IMG/VR virus record: IMGVR_UViG_2671180415_000005
DNA length: 40,193 nucleotides
Strand: one strand, 5' to 3'
Source of the DNA: a virus
Taxonomy: Duplodnaviria > Heunggongvirae > Uroviricota > Caudoviricetes
This document shows, piece after piece, positions 1 through 39,979 of the stretch (its first letter is position 1; each line of letters begins with the position of its first letter). Position numbers and translations under genes: made by a program. Under the pieces are notes generated by a model. The model was not told the DNA's origin, searched no databases, and saw only the letters and a list, made by a program, of their open reading frames with translations.

Positions 1-61
1 GAACCGTTCTGACAGCTTCGGCTTTGAACTCTTTAGAGTAACGTTGGGTTTTTCTGCTCAT
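1..61 (-). CDS. IS3-family transposase OrfA, N-terminal fragment (continues beyond window start)
   Basis: Hand translation of minus strand from ATG at 61..59: MSRKTQRYSKEFKAEAVRTV; HTH-type OrfA N-terminus. Confidence 0.65.
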   Translation of the reverse strand, partial: MSRKTQRYSKEFKAEAVRTV

Positions 62-125
62 TATTAGCTCCTTCTGATGCCATTCTATTTCAGGAAGGAG
101 TGTCCGTTAAACTCAGGCTACCTCA
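1..125 (-). mobile_element. IS3-family insertion sequence, partial (terminal inverted repeat and 5' part of orfA; IS600-like by memory), runs off window
   Basis: Minus strand of 59..61 starts an ORF MSRKTQRYSKEFKAEAVRTV... typical of IS3-family OrfA, with AAGGAG Shine-Dalgarno upstream; element end reads 5'-TGAGGTAGCCTGAG on minus strand (TG terminus at 124..125); torZ reading frame stops exactly at this junction. Confidence 0.7.
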
Positions 126-190
126 CTTCTCTTCTGCCCATGCGGGGAGCGGTGCTGCCGATGTCACCACCTGCGCTCCAGCGGCAATAC
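126..190 (-). pseudogene. torZ: torZ internal fragment (about codons 13-34, Tat signal region), cut by prophage on one side and IS on the other
   Basis: Minus-strand translation SIAAGAQVVTSAAPLPAWAEEK followed immediately by IS terminus; joins in frame with the torZ start fragment at 38813..38854 once the prophage is removed. Confidence 0.7.
186..190. repeat. 5-bp target-site duplication AATAC (copy at prophage right-end junction in window left)
   Basis: AATAC at 186..190 and 38813..38817; removing 191..38812 plus one copy restores MTLTRREFIKHSGIAAGAQVV... in frame. Confidence 0.6.
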
Positions 191-207: not shown

Positions 208-273
208 TTTGATACCGATTTGCATTTCATTTGATACCGCTGAAAAACGCCGATACGCAACTTATTTGATACT
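208..273. repeat. Three TTTGATAC(C/T) transposase-binding-like repeats at the mom-proximal (right) prophage end
   Basis: TTTGATACC at 208..216 and 230..238 (22 bp apart), TTTGATACT at 265..273; inverted copies GGTATCAAA occur at the other end. Confidence 0.6.
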
Positions 274-318
274 AAATCGGCGCTTTTCTTTTGAGTTTTA
301 GAATGAGTTTTTAAGCGT

Positions 319-34285: not shown

Positions 34286-34381
34286 TTAGCTGACTTGTTT
34301 CGCACCAACAGAACGGCATATTCCGCTGTAAACTTCTGTCGCACCTTCGCGATCAAGTCCGGCAGATATCACCATTCGTGT

Positions 34382-34640
34382 NNNNNNNNNNNNNNNNNNN
34401 NNNNNNNNNNNNNNNNNNNNNNNNNNNNNNNNNNNNNNNNNNNNNNNNNNNNNNNNNNNNNNNNNNNNNNNNNNNNNNNNNNNNNNNNNNNNNNNNNNNN
34501 NNNNNNNNNNNNNNNNNNNNNNNNNNNNNNNNNNNNNNNNNNNNNNNNNNNNNNNNNNNNNNNNNNNNNNNNNNNNNNNNNNNNNNNNNNNNNNNNNNNN
34601 NNNNNNNNNNNNNNNNNNNNNNNNNNNNNNNNNNNNNNNN
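34382..34640. other. Assembly gap (259 N)
   Basis: Run of N in the sequence; interrupts the 3' end of the B-like gene. Confidence 1.
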
Positions 34641-35442
34641 CCGGCTTTTCAGCGATAGCCTGCATGACGGCCAGCTCGGCCTCACCACTGATCCCCCACG
34701 CCATGGCAATGGCCAGCACATCCGCCTTTTTGGCCTTGCGAAGTTGTTTTGTACGGGCAAGACGGCTGAACAGGCGCGATAAATCATCAAAGGCGCGGCG
34801 TCCACCTTTAAACAATCCGCGCGGGTTACCAATAAGCACCATCCCGATCCCCGTGGCGTCCTGAATTGCCCGGAGTTGCTCCAGACCGTCAATACCAAGA
34901 TGATCCGCCTCATCCACAATCACCAGTCCACGCGTTCCCATCAGGCGACGGCGGATGGCGCGGGATAATGCCCCTTTGTTCGCGCGGGTGTAATCAATCC
35001 CCAGCGCATCGGCCAGCTCCAGCAGACACTCCGTGACGCTGGAGTGCGCGGGTGACAGGGTGATCATCCAGGTGTTTGGTTGCTCCTGGCAGTAATTACG
35101 GGCAGTGGCCGTTTTACCCACACCCGGTACGCCCACAATAACGTTAATACAGCCCATCAGGCGAACCGCCTGAAACAGTGCGCGCAGCTCCTGGACTGTC
35201 TGAGTTTCCACAAACTGCGGCGGTTCCGGCAGTGCGCTTTGTTTATTCCAGTTCTCATACCAGGAGCGCAGGGAAGCAGCCACAGCAGCGTTATCGCCTT
35301 TATATTTTCCCTTACGGAAAGCCGATAATGTGCCGTCGGAAATTCCCGCCTCTCTGGCGATGGCATACTGCGTCAGTACGCCGCCATCAATAAGTTCATC
35401 AATGGTCTTGATTACATCGTTAATATCGGTCATATTATTCAC
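34641..35442 (-). CDS. B: Mu B-like transposition ATPase (AAA+), C-terminal ~45 codons lost in gap
   Basis: N-terminal HTH then Walker A GVPGVGKT, ...LVIVDEADHLG (Walker B), ...KKADVLAIAMAWGISGEAEL; pattern matches Mu B throughout. Confidence 0.85.
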
Positions 35443-35515: not shown

Positions 35516-37603
35516 TCAGGCCAGCGGATCACTTTCTTTTAATTTCGCTTCGAGCAGTTGCAATCCCCGCTGGAAATTACGCTCGTATTCTTCATCAGGT
35601 TCATCGTCAGCGACCGGTTGCTGAACGGTCACCGTATTACCCACAGGGCGGTATATGTTTTCCAGCCAGGGCTCCTGCGGCTTGTGCTCCAGCACGTTGA
35701 CAACCTCATCCTCGGCATCACGGATTTTTTCCTCTGCGCGTTTACGCATGCCTTTAAGGCGCTGCTGCTGTTTGTAGTATTCCGCGCTGACAGGGAAGGC
35801 TTCGCGTTTATTGCCGTCCCATACCGCCTCGCAAATCACGCTGCCATCCGGGCGGCGCACGGTAATTCGTTCGGCATCATGAATGTCATAGCTGATAAGT
35901 ACCTTACGGCCATGCTCGTCACGCAGCTCGGGCGCGTAGTAAATATTATTCAGCCAGCGTATTTCACAGCGTCTTACAGGGCGCTCCACCATCGGCCGGA
36001 ACATATCCCGCAGTTCAACATCGGACAGCCATTCAATTTCCGTGTCCTCTTCCGCCAGGCGTTTTTTTCTGAACTCCGCCGGGCTGTAATGTTTACCGTT
36101 CGGCTTCATGGGTAATTCATCGTGCGGCCGGTTGTTGTACCACTCAACACCGTCACGAATGGCATCAATCAGTTCAGACCAGGACGGTAAATCACGCATC
36201 GCTGACTGCTGCCGGGCGTTCAGCCGTTTGCCCTGTTGCAGGGCACTGAATGCCGAGCGTAAATCGCGGTTGGTTTTACGTAACGTCTCGCGATCTGCTC
36301 CTTTCCCGAAATAGGTGCGGTATTTACGGGCTATGCGCATCGGTAATGTGCGGTTAAGCCGTTCGATAATGCCCCGTCCCTGCGGATTACCGGCAATCCC
36401 TGTCGGGTGATTAATCCCCAGTCGTGGCAGTATCCCCACAATCTCCTTATCCAGGACGTCGGCGGTTTCCCCGGAGCCATTATCCGAGTAATACAGAAAC
36501 GGTTTGCCATGATGGCGAATACCGTGCTGTATGGCACCGGCTACGGCGAAAACATTTTCAGCCAGGTCAAGGCTCCAGCCCACCACAAAGCGCGTGCCAC
36601 CGTCGATAACAAAGGTCACTTCCGGTGCGAATGGCCGCCCGTGAACCGGGTGCGCGCATTTCAGCTTCATGCCGTGACCGTCACCAATCCAGACATAATT
36701 CACCGGCATTCTGGACCAGTCGCGGCGCGTGAATCCCTCAAGCTGACGGTATTCACTGCCAGTTACCCGGCCTTTTTGTTTCACCACTTCCGGCAGTTTC
36801 TTCATTGCGCGGCGAATGGTGTCATAAGAGGGCATGATATCGAGCATATAAGGCTCATCAGCGTGCCGGTGCTGCCATTCAGCAACAAAATCCTCGTAAG
36901 CCTCGGTCATTGGTCGGCCGTTTGACTGGCGATACTGCGCCAGAAATTCGGGCAGCCAGTTAATATCTTCGGCTTTTATTTCCTGGCGTTTACCCGGTGC
37001 CAGTAAAAGCAGGCGTTCAGCGGCGTTCTGTGCCTTGTTAAAGGCCGCAATCCAGCGTTTCAGCGTGATTTCACTCAACGCGCGGCTGTTTCCCTTTTTG
37101 GCGTTCGCCGTCTCAACCATTGCCACAATGCGCTCGTCCAGTTGTGATCGTGCCAGGCTGTTAACGAGGAACCGGATAGCTTTAGCGCAGCTGAAACCGG
37201 GTTGTTGCGTGAATTTCAGCACCTCACTGACGATCGCAATGCGTGCGTCTGCCACCTGGCGCTGGTTTTCAGTCAGGGCATTGAGGCGTTCGACCATCAG
37301 TTGTGGTGATCCGCGATATGCCTCCACCGCATCAACCACGGCAGACGAGCGTCTGGCCTTTGTCACCACCGGAGCCGGTGATTCATCGGCTTTTTGCGTC
37401 ATCAGTTGCAGGGCATAACGTTCGCGTAATGCCTGCTGTGTCACTTCAGGTAAACAGTCAATGCTGTATTCAAAACCTTTAGCGCCTTTCTTGCGGCGTC
37501 TGCTGGTTTCGCTGGTTGCATACTTCCTGATTGAATAGCGAACGCCTTGCTCCGTTCCCGGCATCCCCGGTAATCCAACCAGTTCTTTAACTGAAGCAAA
37601 CAT
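35516..37603 (-). CDS. A: Mu A-like DDE transposase
   Basis: 695 aa directly after ner-like gene; size and position of MuA; large central catalytic region. Confidence 0.9.
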   Translation of the reverse strand: MFASVKELVGLPGMPGTEQGVRYSIRKYATSETSRRRKKGAKGFEYSIDCLPEVTQQALRERYALQLMTQKADESPAPVVTKARRSSAVVDAVEAYRGSPQLMVERLNALTENQRQVADARIAIVSEVLKFTQQPGFSCAKAIRFLVNSLARSQLDERIVAMVETANAKKGNSRALSEITLKRWIAAFNKAQNAAERLLLLAPGKRQEIKAEDINWLPEFLAQYRQSNGRPMTEAYEDFVAEWQHRHADEPYMLDIMPSYDTIRRAMKKLPEVVKQKGRVTGSEYRQLEGFTRRDWSRMPVNYVWIGDGHGMKLKCAHPVHGRPFAPEVTFVIDGGTRFVVGWSLDLAENVFAVAGAIQHGIRHHGKPFLYYSDNGSGETADVLDKEIVGILPRLGINHPTGIAGNPQGRGIIERLNRTLPMRIARKYRTYFGKGADRETLRKTNRDLRSAFSALQQGKRLNARQQSAMRDLPSWSELIDAIRDGVEWYNNRPHDELPMKPNGKHYSPAEFRKKRLAEEDTEIEWLSDVELRDMFRPMVERPVRRCEIRWLNNIYYAPELRDEHGRKVLISYDIHDAERITVRRPDGSVICEAVWDGNKREAFPVSAEYYKQQQRLKGMRKRAEEKIRDAEDEVVNVLEHKPQEPWLENIYRPVGNTVTVQQPVADDEPDEEYERNFQRGLQLLEAKLKESDPLA

Positions 37604-37605
37604 AA

Positions 37606-37836
37606 TTACGCGACCTTACGAATGTAGCGGCTGGGCCAAATCTCCTCGGGCGGCACCCCCAGGCATTCCGCGATAATCCCCTCATACTTGGGAACATGGC
37701 GGTATACCGCGTTGTACAGATTGTTCTGACCCACGCCAGCTTTACGGGCCAGCGCCCTCATGCTTCCTTCTCTGGCTCTGACTTCCCCCAAAATTCTTTG
37801 AGGATGCCAATCAGGCTTAACTTCATTTCTCGCCAT
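37606..37836 (-). CDS. ner: Ner-like DNA-binding regulator
   Basis: 76 aa; ...DWHPQRILGEVRAREGSMRALARKAGVGQNNLYNAV...EIWPSRY matches Ner/Nlp family. Confidence 0.8.
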   Translation of the reverse strand: MARNEVKPDWHPQRILGEVRAREGSMRALARKAGVGQNNLYNAVYRHVPKYEGIIAECLGVPPEEIWPSRYIRKVA

Positions 37837-38021
37837 GATTCATCTATCCTAAAAAGTTACGAAATTTGATAACTAAACTTAGTTATCAAGTTTGATATAA
37901 GTATTGATCCACTTCTGCTTCATGTAAAGCAAAAAAAACATCTTTCTTTTGTCTATTGTGGATCAATGGTTGCTGACAACACTAAAAGTTAATAATTTCA
38001 AATTGATAGGAAGAAAAGAAA
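37837..38021. promoter_or_regulatory. Divergent immunity control region (operators/promoters between ner and repressor)
   Basis: Perfect palindrome TGATAACTAA-AC-TTAGTTATCA at 37867..37888; inverted 10-mers ATTGATCCAC (37903..37912) and GTGGATCAAT (37959..37968); AT-rich. Confidence 0.6.
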
Positions 38022-38567
38022 ATGAACAAGCAAACAACAACATCTCTTTCTTTTCCTGGTGGTAGAAAAGAAAGCATTGCTGAGCGTCTGAAAAGGCTGA
38101 TTGGCTCCCGCAGCGTCAGAGCTGCAGCAAGAGATTGGGGGCTTTCATTTTCAACACTAAACAATTATCTGTCTCGTGGCACTGAGCCATCCTTAAGTGT
38201 CGCCCTTCAGATTGCGTCTATCGAAGGAGTAAGTGTTGAGTGGCTATGTGGATTCAGTGATGCATCACAAGTGAATCGGTGTGAGATCAAGGAAAATCAA
38301 GATGAAAGCAAGAAGATAATTATGACGATTATCAGCGCACTTGATGAAAAAGACTTAGAGCAGCTATCGAAAAATTTGGTTCTGAATGGAGCCAAGTACT
38401 TAGCTCGGTTGTTAGAGCCTGAAAATCAAGATCTAATCCGCTTAGAAGGAAGGAAAAGAATAGCTGCATTACAGCTTGAAGGTATGTCTGACGAACGCGT
38501 CAGAGAGATTTTGGAAGAAACTGAGAGAAGTCGCAAATCTAACGCGGTAGAACCAAAAGCGGGTTAA
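38022..38567 (+). CDS. Prophage repressor, XRE/Cro-C1-type HTH (functional equivalent of Mu c)
   Basis: 181 aa, divergent from ner/A/B; HTH-like ...SVRAAARDWGLSFSTLNNYLSRGTEPSLSVALQIASIEGVSVEWL; unlike Mu c itself. Confidence 0.65.
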   Translation: MNKQTTTSLSFPGGRKESIAERLKRLIGSRSVRAAARDWGLSFSTLNNYLSRGTEPSLSVALQIASIEGVSVEWLCGFSDASQVNRCEIKENQDESKKIIMTIISALDEKDLEQLSKNLVLNGAKYLARLLEPENQDLIRLEGRKRIAALQLEGMSDERVREILEETERSRKSNAVEPKAG

Positions 38568-38640
38568 TAGCATTAGCCCGCATTTTGCACTATATCGAGT
38601 ATTTCGCATTGTTTGGAACGCCTTAAAAGACTAAAACCAC

Positions 38641-38796
38641 AGTATCAAATGAGTTGCCGATTTTATAATAAATGACTAATTATTGCACAATCGGTATCAA
38701 ATAGACCTTATCCGCACATCTAGCCATCACCTGTTTTATTTCAGTATCTTACAGGTGATTTCACCTCCTTTCACTAAACCCCTTGTCGGTATCAAA
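38641..38796. repeat. Three GGTATCAAA / AGTATCAAA transposase-binding-like repeats at the repressor-proximal (left) prophage end
   Basis: Sites at 38641..38649, 38693..38701, 38788..38796, i.e. about 17, 112 and 164 bp from the inferred end, matching Mu L1/L2/L3 spacing. Confidence 0.6.
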
Positions 38797-38812
38797 TGAT
38801 TCACCTGGTTAT

Positions 38813-38817
38813 AATAC
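38813..38817. repeat. 5-bp target-site duplication AATAC (copy at prophage left-end junction)
   Basis: See 186..190. Confidence 0.6.
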
Positions 38818-38878: not shown

Positions 38879-39979
38879 TCACTGTTTCTCGGTAATATCT
38901 TTGGCGTTGTACTGGAAATACCGCGTTAAAATGTCCAGTTCGTTTTCGCTCATGCTGGTTCGTGCCCCCATTCCTTTGGCAATGGACGGCCACGCATTGA
39001 CGGTGTAATGGTCGGCGGCAATAGGGGCATGACAACCAGCGCAATAGGTATCGTCAAGTTTTTCAGCGTATTGCCATAGCGGTTTACGGTCCGCTAATCC
39101 GGGATCGGTAAGCGCACCCTGTAAAGACGCCTGACGCCATTGATTGCCGTATTCGTCAGCCTGCCATTCCCCGTTTACCGTGAGCGCCTTGATACCTTCT
39201 TCACTTAATGTGGCTAGCGCCAGCCGTTGACCTGCCGCCAGGTAGAGCGTGTTTTCACTGCCCTGCATTTGATAACCCTGCAACAGAACGATCGGCTGTT
39301 TGCCACTGGCATCAACGACGGTGAGATCGGTACCAGGATTCACGGTAGCCAGCTCGCCTATGCGAGAAGTTTTGAAAGGATAAATATGTGCGCCATTAGT
39401 CACTGAAGTAGCGGCCTGACTTTCCAGCTCATGCGCCGCGTTGTCATCCATTTTTATTTCTGGCGGAAAATGGGCAATGCCTTTATGACAATCGATACAG
39501 GTTTCGCCGCCCTTTTGTGCTTTGTTATGCATTTTCTGCGCAGATTCACTTTGCGAGGCAATATCCATGGCATCAAAAGAATGGCAACTACGGCACGTTG
39601 CAGAGTCAGTTGCTTTTAATTCTTTCCATACTGTTTCGGCCATTTCCTGGCGATGAGTTTCGAACTTATCGTCACTGTCTATTTTGCCGCTAACAAATTC
39701 ATGATAAATATCTTTAGATGCTTTTAATTTAGCAAATAAATAATCCATCCCTGACTTTGGAATATGGCAATCTGCACATTCCGCACGTATCCCTTTCTGG
39801 TTCGAAAAGTGGACAGTTCCCTGATATTCCTCAAAAGATTTACTCATCGAGTGGCAGGAAAGGCAAAATGCTGTATCCGACGTTTTATGTAAGGCTTTTT
39901 GCGCCAGCAATAACCCGCCGCCACCAACCACAACCGCTATCAGCAAAAACAATAACCCAATGCGTTTTTTCCCTCGCAT
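38879..39979 (-). CDS. torY: TorY-like pentaheme c-type cytochrome (NapC/NirT family, membrane-anchored)
   Basis: 366 aa; N-terminal [20 protein letters not shown]; five CXXCH motifs (CLSCH, CADCH, CRSCH, CIDCH, CAGCH); immediately upstream of torZ start. Confidence 0.85.

Follow-up and report, generated by a model that had tools for sequence, protein, structure and literature searches.

Which protein reads which repeat in an immunity region where Mu-type early genes stand beside a repressor that does not look like Mu c? This question is raised by a 185-bp intergenic region of a Mu-like transposable prophage, lying between ner and the divergently oriented gene of the putative immunity repressor. 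The prophage is contained in a viral DNA stretch of 40,193 nucleotides (Caudoviricetes; IMG/VR record IMGVR_UViG_2671180415_000005), the full length of which is called the window here. In Mu, the textbook example of a transposable phage, the repressor is commonly described as being related to the enhancer-binding domain of the transposase. A sequence-only reading of the window had described the immunity region as mosaic, with Mu-type ner, A and B paired with an XRE-type repressor and palindromic operators, and had deduced an operator logic different from Mu O1-O3 and possibly a distinct immunity group. Our analysis suggests that the repressor belongs to the Mu c lineage but carries a swapped head, that the perfect palindrome of the intergenic region is most likely the operator of Ner, and that other repeats, which track the repressor type, are the likelier repressor operators. 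The coordinates of all elements are collected in Table 1.

A Cro/C1-type head on a Mu-c-type tail

In the AlphaFold model of the repressor (mean predicted local distance difference test score (pLDDT) 73.6), residues 1-14 are disordered (pLDDT <50) and residues 19-75 form a five-helix domain of the Cro/C1 (XRE) type with helices at 19-27, 32-39, 43-52, 58-68 and 72-75 (pLDDT 86-90). The recognition helix 43-FSTLNNYLSR-52 proved nearly invariant in the alignment of the repressor family. Foldseek related this head to P22 c2 (template modelling score (TM) 0.82-0.84, root-mean-square deviation (RMSD) 1.6 Å), the repressor and Cro of phage 434, SinR and ImmR, with overall TM values of 0.73-0.84. The fold of residues 19-75 is thus similar to that of P22 c2 and 434 repressor (TM 0.74-0.84, RMSD 1.6-2 Å), whereas the sequence identity is only 17-25% and the C-terminal domain, the operators and the genomic context differ. 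Pfam HTH_3 scored 21.8 bits on the window repressor against a cut-off of 23 bits, and the match to Phage_CI_repr was weak; among the repressor family, 47 of 53 members matched HTH_3 (best E 2.1e-15). The same Pfam search of the window repressor and its 53 relatives gave zero matches to PF02316, the Mu-type winged-helix head, and zero matches to Peptidase_S24. BLASTP of the window repressor against Mu c yielded nothing significant, pairwise BLASTP being too weak for this comparison, which needs profile methods. The fold, the missing PF02316 and the BLASTP result agree with the sequence-only reading, which had seen a Cro/C1-type helix-turn-helix (HTH) and no resemblance to the N-terminus of Mu c. 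Because this head is unrelated to that of Mu c or D108 c, the operators cannot follow the recognition of Mu O1-O3, and the predicted difference in operator logic holds in this respect.

The C-terminal half of the protein is homologous to Mu c, in contrast to the head. The domain at residues ~87-173 is modelled as all-helical, is joined to the head by a linker, and the protein ends with PKAG. The profile phrog_3037 ('transcriptional repressor') fits the window repressor over its full length (E 4.5e-60, residues 3-180 on profile 2-188/189). The Mu c family phrog_7148, which matches Mu c itself with E 6.9e-73, also matches residues 94-178 of the window repressor (E 1.2e-4), and reciprocally residues 90-185 of Mu c match phrog_3037 (E 1.1e-4). 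Comparison of a 32-member alignment of the window family with an 11-member Mu c alignment by hhalign gave a probability of 91.7% (E 7.9e-7) and paired window residues 90-169 with residues 95-176 of Mu c. A phmmer search with the last 94 amino acids of the repressor against 1.84 billion representative proteins returned 24 matches, four of which carry the PF02316 Mu-type head on the same tail, with tail identities of 37-41%. The C-termini are of one kind, with the consensus KxAG and some KQAV in the window family and KKAV, KAS or KAG in the Mu c family; a function of this tail is known for Mu only, the repressor of which is controlled via a C-terminal ClpX motif (PMC10584840). On the basis of this profile, PHROG and phmmer homology, the window repressor appears to be a head-swapped member of the Mu c lineage in which only the DNA-binding head differs. 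Homology to Mu c, named by the sequence-only reading as its own refutation, thus exists for one half of the protein, and the contrast to Mu c is confined to the head.

Like Mu c and D108 c (phrog_7148), the window repressor is encoded divergently from ner-A-B, has a similar length, lacks an S24 domain and possesses the homologous helical C-terminal domain with a tail of the K-x-A-V/G kind. Its head, however, is a Cro/C1 five-helix HTH, whereas that of Mu is the PF02316 winged helix shared with MuA. In Mu, this N-terminal DNA-binding domain is common to the transposase and repressor c. Transposase A of the window keeps a Mu-type N-terminal domain, as its residues 3-63 match phrog_7148 with E 8.8e-9. 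Since the repressor head is of the Cro/C1 type, the DNA-binding domain is no longer common to the two proteins, and the Mu-type head seems to survive on the transposase only. The Mu type of ner, A and B was confirmed by Pfam (HTH_35; HTH_Tnp_Mu_1 and Mu-transpos_C; Phage-MuB_C) and by PHROG (phrog_769, phrog_310), and Ner shows 45% identity to Mu Ner.

Two proteins with the same C-terminal domain, P0126 and P0127, gave weak Pfam matches to YfeC-like (PF07037) over that domain. These hints suggest that the Mu-c-type tail may be related to E. coli regulators of the YfeC/YfiE type.

Table 1. Positions in the window of the genes, repeats and promoter of the immunity region and of neighbouring features
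Feature	Position	Strand	Description
B	34369-35442	-	MuB-type AAA+ target-DNA activator; Pfam AAA_22 and Phage-MuB_C
Transposase A	35516-37603	-	695 aa, Mu-type DDE; Pfam HTH_Tnp_Mu_1 (35.7 bits) and Mu-transpos_C
ner	37606-37836	-	76 aa, Ner/HTH_35 family (Pfam); first gene of the early operon
Intergenic region	37837-38021		185 bp between ner and the repressor gene
Two tandem dyad units (repeat D2)	37855-37897		AGTTACGAAATTTGATA and AGTTATCAAGTTTGATA, 26 bp apart, each TTAYC-N6-GATA
Perfect 10-2-10 palindrome	37867-37888		TGATAACTAA-AC-TTAGTTATCA; core TGATAAC-N8-GTTATCA; candidate Ner operator
Predicted early promoter Pe	37900-37928	-	-35 TTTACA (37928-37923), 17-bp spacer, -10 AATACT (37905-37900)
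Second inverted repeat, left arm	37903-37912		ATTGATCCAC; overlaps Pe -10 and spacer, contains GATC; candidate repressor operator arm
A/T-tract inverted repeat	37926-37951		AAAGCAAAAAAAAC/CTTTCTTTTG; overlaps and lies just upstream of Pe -35; candidate core operator
Second inverted repeat, right arm	37958-37967		GTGGATCAAT; within the variable, repressor-linked half of the intergenic region
Further copy of the CTTTCTTTT/AAAGNAAAA motif	38013-38021		GAAAAGAAA; at the repressor ribosome-binding site
Immunity repressor gene	38022-38567	+	181 aa
Perfect 10-9-10 palindrome	38046-38074		CTTTCTTTTC-N9-GAAAAGAAAG; repressor codons 9-18; candidate autoregulatory operator
c-side prophage end	38568-38813		three TCGGTATCAAAT-type direct repeats at 38639, 38691 and 38786

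The perfect palindrome and Ner

Both the 10-2-10 palindrome and the second pair of inverted 10-mers are present as the sequence-only reading had described them. The palindrome extends to 15-nt arms at 93% complementarity and constitutes the junction of two tandem dyad units, of which it comprises the inner halves. The whole 40-kb window contains four distinct perfect palindromes with arms of at least 10 nt and a spacer of at most 10 nt, compared to 0.71 in block shuffles, and two of these four fall in 37867-38074; GATAA-N10-TTATC occurs once at an expectation of 0.03. That the repeats are functionless chance features of an A+T-rich intergenic region is extremely improbable: the second, distant 10-mer pair lies within the chance expectation for the whole window, but the perfect palindrome and GATAA-N10-TTATC are far above it, and their position and geometry are conserved in more than 20 loci from different genera. 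For the palindrome, this conservation excludes chance.

Proteins of the P22 c2/434 type typically bind palindromes of 14-22 bp. As the repressor head has the fold of these proteins, the perfect palindrome, which is the strongest dyad of the intergenic region, and the second pair might both be operators bound by a repressor dimer, and the repressor recognition helix as well as the GATAA/TTATC theme are widely conserved across the family. The distribution of the palindrome makes this quite unlikely. Natural recombinants provided a two-way test, in which the ner-proximal part of the intergenic region (ner ATG to Pe -10) was compared with the repressor-proximal part (Table 2; related loci carry L numbers). 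Pairs that share Ner but differ in the repressor retain the GATAA cluster; between the window and L044 the cluster is rearranged, and TGATCCAC...GTGGATCA stays. Hence, the palindrome follows Ner through exchanges of the repressor and is altered if Ner itself is replaced. In the Salmonella loci L046/47 the repressor helix reads SEATVRNY, yet TTATC-N6-GATAA-N10-TTATC-N6-GATAA is kept; conversely, the palindrome varies (GGATAA, TGATAAC, GGTAAG) while the repressor helix is constant.

Table 2. Identities between pairs of loci that represent natural recombinants (WIN, window)
Pair	Ner	Repressor head	ner-proximal part	Repressor-proximal part
WIN-L002	100%	50%	95%	68%
L011-L035	100%	44%	100%	68%
L013-L037	97%	42%	89%	67%
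L003-L044	96%	46%	88%	62%
WIN-L044	54%	70%	63%	77%

A systematic scan showed that the window, ~18 relatives, D108 and L050 all have a 7-N8-7 dyad at a distance of 27-31 bp from the start codon (ATG) of ner. The half-sites change with the class of the Ner recognition helix: they read TGATAAC/GTTATCA in the window and L002, CGATAAC in L005, GGATAAY/GTTATCC in the large group with a PDTLKNAL helix, and GGTAAG/CTTACC in Sodalis. Dyads of the same geometry at the same offset are found in phages with Mu-c-type repressors, namely GAGCTAC-N8-GTAGCTC in D108, where it is part of a perfect 11-8-11 palindrome (CCGTGAGCTAC-N8-GTAGCTCACGG), and CAGCTAC-N8-GTAGCTG in L050, which again argues against a repressor site. 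Mu and L049 carry AACTAAG-N8-CTTAGYT at offset 44. The window dyad (centre 37877.5; ner ATG 37836) sits between the predicted Pe start and the ner start codon, and the dyads of Mu (1033-1054) and D108 are placed equivalently; the palindrome lies ~15 bp downstream of the predicted Pe start and not over the promoter, a position that likewise speaks against a repressor site. The Mu GenBank record marks the stretches flanking the Mu dyad as part of the Ner binding region, and Tolias and DuBow are said to have footprinted Ner on these Mu and D108 dyads in 1985 and 1986. The window dyad shares its location with the Ner operators of both phages and its 7-N8-7 geometry at offset 28-31 with that of D108. 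It differs in its half-sites (TGATAAC, compared to GAGCTAC in D108 and AACTAAG in Mu) and in being extended to a perfect 10-2-10 palindrome with two more half-sites flanking it. Because of its co-segregation with Ner and its D108-like geometry and position, the perfect palindrome is most likely a Ner operator and not a repressor operator.

The palindrome and the TTATC/GATAA repeats might instead act mainly as RNA, with hairpins in the ner-A-B leader controlling stability or ner translation, a role that would be compatible with Ner binding. Indeed, the palindrome region is located inside the predicted early leader, the window leader (37837-37895, minus strand) is predicted to form a hairpin of 10 bp (z = -1.95), z values of -2.8 to -4.3 are reached by the leaders of L044, L003 and L011, and in L044 and L003 the ner ribosome-binding region, in which a copy of GGATAA is found, takes part in an outer stem. 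Alternating inverted-repeat arrays, however, fold well by construction, the leader folds differ between the loci without a common structure, and the equivalent dyads of Mu and D108 are reportedly, and for Mu by annotation, protein-binding DNA sites. We consider a predominant role as RNA very unlikely and retain the assignment to Ner.

The early promoter and the repressor-linked repeats

Comparison of the loci revealed a conserved plan of the intergenic region. From ner outward, the leader with the ner ribosome-binding site (CCTAAAAAGTTA) is followed by four half-sites of the TTATC/GATAA type, which alternate, form two TTATC-N6-GATAA units 26 bp apart and recur in relatives; then come AGTATTGATCC, CATGTAAAG, the A/T-tract inverted repeat AAAGNAAAA...TTTCTTTT, a variable stretch of ~50 bp, and finally GGAAAAGAAA and the repressor ATG. 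The predicted early promoter Pe was the only sigma-70-like site found by a consensus scan of 37780-38100, and its start is predicted near 37893. Both hexamers are conserved across the loci and built from two conserved blocks; the same TTTACA, within GTAAAGC, is located inside the annotated early promoter of Mu.

The second pair consists of perfect inverted 10-mers with 45 nt between the arms, which bracket the Pe -35 hexamer. It is kept in L044 (repressor head 70%, Ner 54%) and lost in L002, which has the same Ner and a different repressor. The pair recurs in L044, L007, L008 and L024, and L023 has a version in which the changes are compensatory (TATCCATAAT/ATTATGGATA); other loci, for example L035 and L011, have another pair in the same place (AAATTAGGACT/AGTCCTAATTT and ATTGAACCCA/TGGGTTCAAT, respectively). 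It is this conservation in relatives that gives the second pair its weight. A variable inverted repeat, composed of the Pe spacer and a copy ~55 bp off, was also considered as a family-wide immunity determinant and was discarded, as the permutation test was weak (p about 0.05); the repeat is clear only in L011, L035, L007, L023, the window and L044.

The A/T-tract inverted repeat is conserved in loci with an FSTLNNY repressor helix. Its motif CTTTCTTTT occurs four times in the window, compared to 0.3 expected, and three of the copies are found within 133 bp. The heptamer TTTCTTT is present in 4-7 copies in FSTLNNY-helix loci and is missing from L041 and L046, where the repressor helices are different and the same three places are occupied by other repeats (AACCTGAAAA-7-TTTTCAGGTT, and AAACCGAA). 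Within the repressor gene, codons 9-18, which hold the 10-9-10 palindrome, encode the disordered peptide LSFPGGRKES, with the family pattern (K)KES-x-F-[SA]-F-x4-KES. The glutamate of this disordered peptide is encoded by GAA in nearly every locus listed, which points to selection acting on the DNA of these codons. Since both the second inverted repeat and the CTTTCTTTT motif track the repressor type and overlap Pe, they are the likelier candidates for repressor operators. Of the palindromes that the sequence-only reading had taken as operators of the repressor, the second pair thus persists as a candidate, and the perfect palindrome does not.

The CTTTCTTTT/AAAGNAAAA repeats might otherwise be a transposition enhancer for the N-terminal domain of the transposase, or an UP element of Pe, with the repressor binding only the outer repeat or other variable sequence. 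The transposase keeps its Mu-type N-terminal domain, and the enhancer and operators of Mu coincide in one region (PMC3820752). The operator region of Mu also has similar CTTTTT/GAAAAG repeats around the same TTTACA -35 hexamer, and in loci devoid of the motif the transposase N-terminus has diverged as well: the first ~75 residues are 43-45% identical in L041 and L046, compared to 74-75% overall. In L003 the respective values are 68% and 80%. Apparently, exchange of the immunity region has also included the enhancer-binding head of the transposase, as is the case between Mu and D108. An attempt to separate operator from enhancer by means of the other-helix loci was abandoned as confounded by this difference in the transposase N-terminus (43-45%). 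Against the enhancer or UP element, motif and repressor helix stay invariant even though the transposase N-termini of the loci concerned share only 46-52% identity, the other-helix loci carry other repeats in the same places, including the 5' codons of the repressor gene, and motif copies at the repressor ribosome-binding site and first codons suit autoregulation better than an UP element. We therefore regard the enhancer or UP element as unlikely and prefer the repeats as repressor operators.

Several minor features were recorded in the same segment. The intergenic region has just two GATC (Dam) sites, 37906-37909 and 37961-37964, and each arm of the second inverted repeat contains one of them. 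The left site belongs to the Pe spacer, beside the -10 hexamer, and most relatives have kept TTGATC at this place. Methylation by Dam could influence Pe or the binding of the repressor. Mu has a site for integration host factor (IHF) in its operator region. In many relatives, a good match to the IHF consensus, WATCAANNNNTTR, was detected just upstream of the repressor ribosome-binding site; in L013, L015, L012, L022, L024 and L020 it precedes the start of the repressor gene by 10-25 bp. The version in the window, TTTCAAATTGATA (37997-38010), is degenerate and deviates from the consensus at two positions. The in-gene palindrome (38046-38074, read on the minus strand) together with a T-rich stretch was called as resembling an intrinsic terminator antisense to the repressor gene, which is probably a by-product of the palindrome. 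The predicted RNA fold around the repressor start and the in-gene palindrome was no better than that of shuffles (z +0.68), and an excess of G-T over A-C mismatches (19 versus 8), considered as a sign of RNA structure for the in-gene palindrome and the ribosome-binding site, was set aside as confounded by coding constraints.

A proposed lysis-lysogeny switch

Starting from the observed domain homologies, positions, promoter match and co-segregation of elements with proteins, we propose binding, oligomerisation and induction steps of a Mu-like lysis-lysogeny switch with a Cro/C1 head on a Mu-c-type tail, a palindrome for Ner and repressor sites over Pe, which we consider fairly probable as a whole. 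The repressor would bind ATTGATCCAC/GTGGATCAAT, flanking the -35 hexamer, and the CTTTCTTTT/AAAGNAAAA motif, both overlapping Pe, and its conserved helix would read the conserved motif. The C-terminal domain might oligomerise and bridge the sites at Pe with those at the start of the repressor gene, in analogy to Mu c on O1-O3, and the bridged repressor would shut off ner-A-B and autoregulate its own gene. Ner, bound to its palindrome at 37867-37888, would throttle Pe and block transcription of the repressor gene as in Mu and D108. As an S24 autoprotease domain is lacking, we suggest that induction would follow the Mu route via the C-terminal tail and ClpXP or a related protease, and not RecA-stimulated self-cleavage.

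Several points weigh against this switch. The co-segregation of palindrome and Ner rests on linkage, and because the palindrome adjoins ner, recombination breakpoints alone could give the pattern. The covariation of half-site and Ner helix is imperfect, as L014, L019 and L025 have a PDTLKNAL helix yet TTACC/GGTAA-type repeats. The window contains five distinct pairs of distant inverted 10-mers compared to 3.8 expected, so that the second pair is not significant alone. The outer repeat varies with weak covariation across the family (p about 0.05) while the recognition helix is near-invariant, and immunity specificity is consequently not accounted for. A promoter of the repressor gene was not found by the consensus scan of 37780-38100. 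Finally, the A/T-tract motif could be an UP element of Pe, or it could be a site of the transposase N-terminal domain, which also differs in the motif-lacking loci.

In the proposed switch, the operator assignment of the sequence-only reading would be corrected to Ner at 37855-37897 and the repressor at 37900-38075. The repressor and the right half of the intergenic region appear to behave as an exchangeable immunity cassette, as seen in comparison with a Mu-like prophage of E. coli O157 (L002), in which Ner is identical and A 97% identical, but the repressor only 43%. The term mosaic suggests a rare local recombinant, which is not supported by the spread of the layout described below. The distinct immunity group suggested earlier is plausible, and the immunity type probably differs from those of Mu, D108 and the O157 prophage.

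In this large class of enterobacterial Mu-like phages, the loss of the head shared with the transposase permits a further, tentative and rather doubtful interpretation. The competition for one operator/enhancer known from Mu may have been uncoupled or rebuilt with unrelated domains, the CTTTCTTTT repeats, located partly in the first codons of the repressor gene, being a shared operator/enhancer read by the XRE head and by the winged helix of the transposase, and immunity specificity being set outside the near-invariant helix. The Mu-type C-terminal module on either head represents a natural domain-swap series, which could address the function of the tail (oligomerisation, ClpXP control), the protection of the enhancer without a DNA-binding domain shared by repressor and transposase, and the immunity groups of E. 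coli Mu-like prophages including O157 and the inserts in Stx phages. The components and the switch logic are nevertheless of known kinds; nothing is categorically new, and the result is incremental.

Distribution of the layout

A search with the repressor retrieved 93 clusters from Escherichia, Salmonella, Yersinia, Serratia, Klebsiella, Citrobacter, Photorhabdus, Xenorhabdus, Sodalis and others, and a search with Mu c 24 clusters, two numbers that are not directly comparable; Cro/C1-headed repressors may be commoner than the Mu c type in Enterobacterales. When each species was represented by a single genome, 37 loci were obtained, which come from many genera of the Enterobacterales. A divergent ner homologue was located 160-190 bp upstream of the gene encoding the repressor in 33 of the 37, and a Mu-type A came next in most of them. 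An XRE-headed repressor divergent from ner is therefore a common layout in Enterobacterales and no rare local recombinant.

Sequenced phages with this repressor are Yersinia vB_YpM_5/6 (Muvirus) and Mu-like inserts in Stx phages. Yersinia vB_YpM_5/6 and the E. coli O157 prophage share with the window the repressor family (53% and 43% identity, respectively) and the order ner-A-B, and their repressor genes are annotated merely as hypothetical or HTH proteins. Because their repressor alleles and the repressor-proximal half of the intergenic region differ from those of the window, other immunity types are probable for both. Weaker relatives of the head were found in B3/D3112-like transposable phages of Pseudomonas and in those of Shewanella and Vibrio.

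Cro/C1-type repressors next to ner have already been described in other transposable phages, and the architecture is widespread and partly catalogued. HTH-type repressors with S24 beside ner are known from MuM16-1, BcepMu and others, several of which are mitomycin-inducible (PMC8541194), a CI-like repressor RepC stands beside ner in Pseudomonas Fc02/B3 (PMC9936078), and an XRE-type gene of the Mu-like prophage ECA41 was essential in transposon sequencing (PMC13566846). The window resembles B3/Fc02, Shewanella MuM16-1 and BcepMu in having a Cro/C1- or CI-like HTH repressor divergent from ner together with a Mu-type transposase (PMC9936078, PMC8541194). The similarity of the N-terminal domains is weak, however, and several repressors of the MuM16-1 and BcepMu kind have an S24 autoprotease as C-terminal domain, whereas the tail of the window repressor is of the Mu c type without S24.

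Prophage ends and flanking genes

The prophage occupies window ~191-38813 with its regulatory end on the right, where its c-gene side borders on a gene of the TorC/TorY family; other copies of the element in E. coli likewise cease to be similar at ~38813. The direct repeats of the TCGGTATCAAAT type at this end have inverted copies near window 210-275 (TTTGATACCG twice, and ATTTGATACT), and together they are probably end-binding sites of the transposase. Inside the B reading frame, a run of 259 bases (34382-34640) is masked as N. Both termini of the prophage read TATA(G/A)C..., so that the ends look TA...TA-like compared to the usual TG...CA, and a clean 5-bp target duplication sought at the prophage ends could not be defined. 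The left flank (window 60-143) matches IS66-family elements (TnpB/transposase), which thousands of E. coli genomes contain. On this side, the prophage consequently adjoins an insertion sequence element and not the torY-side target, and the original target cannot be reconstructed. The gene adjoining the prophage on the right (38879-39979) encodes a pentahaem cytochrome of the TorC/TorY family, which scores under the TorC equivalog cut-off and appears intact. The exact element of the window was found in 12 of 5426 complete E. coli genomes.

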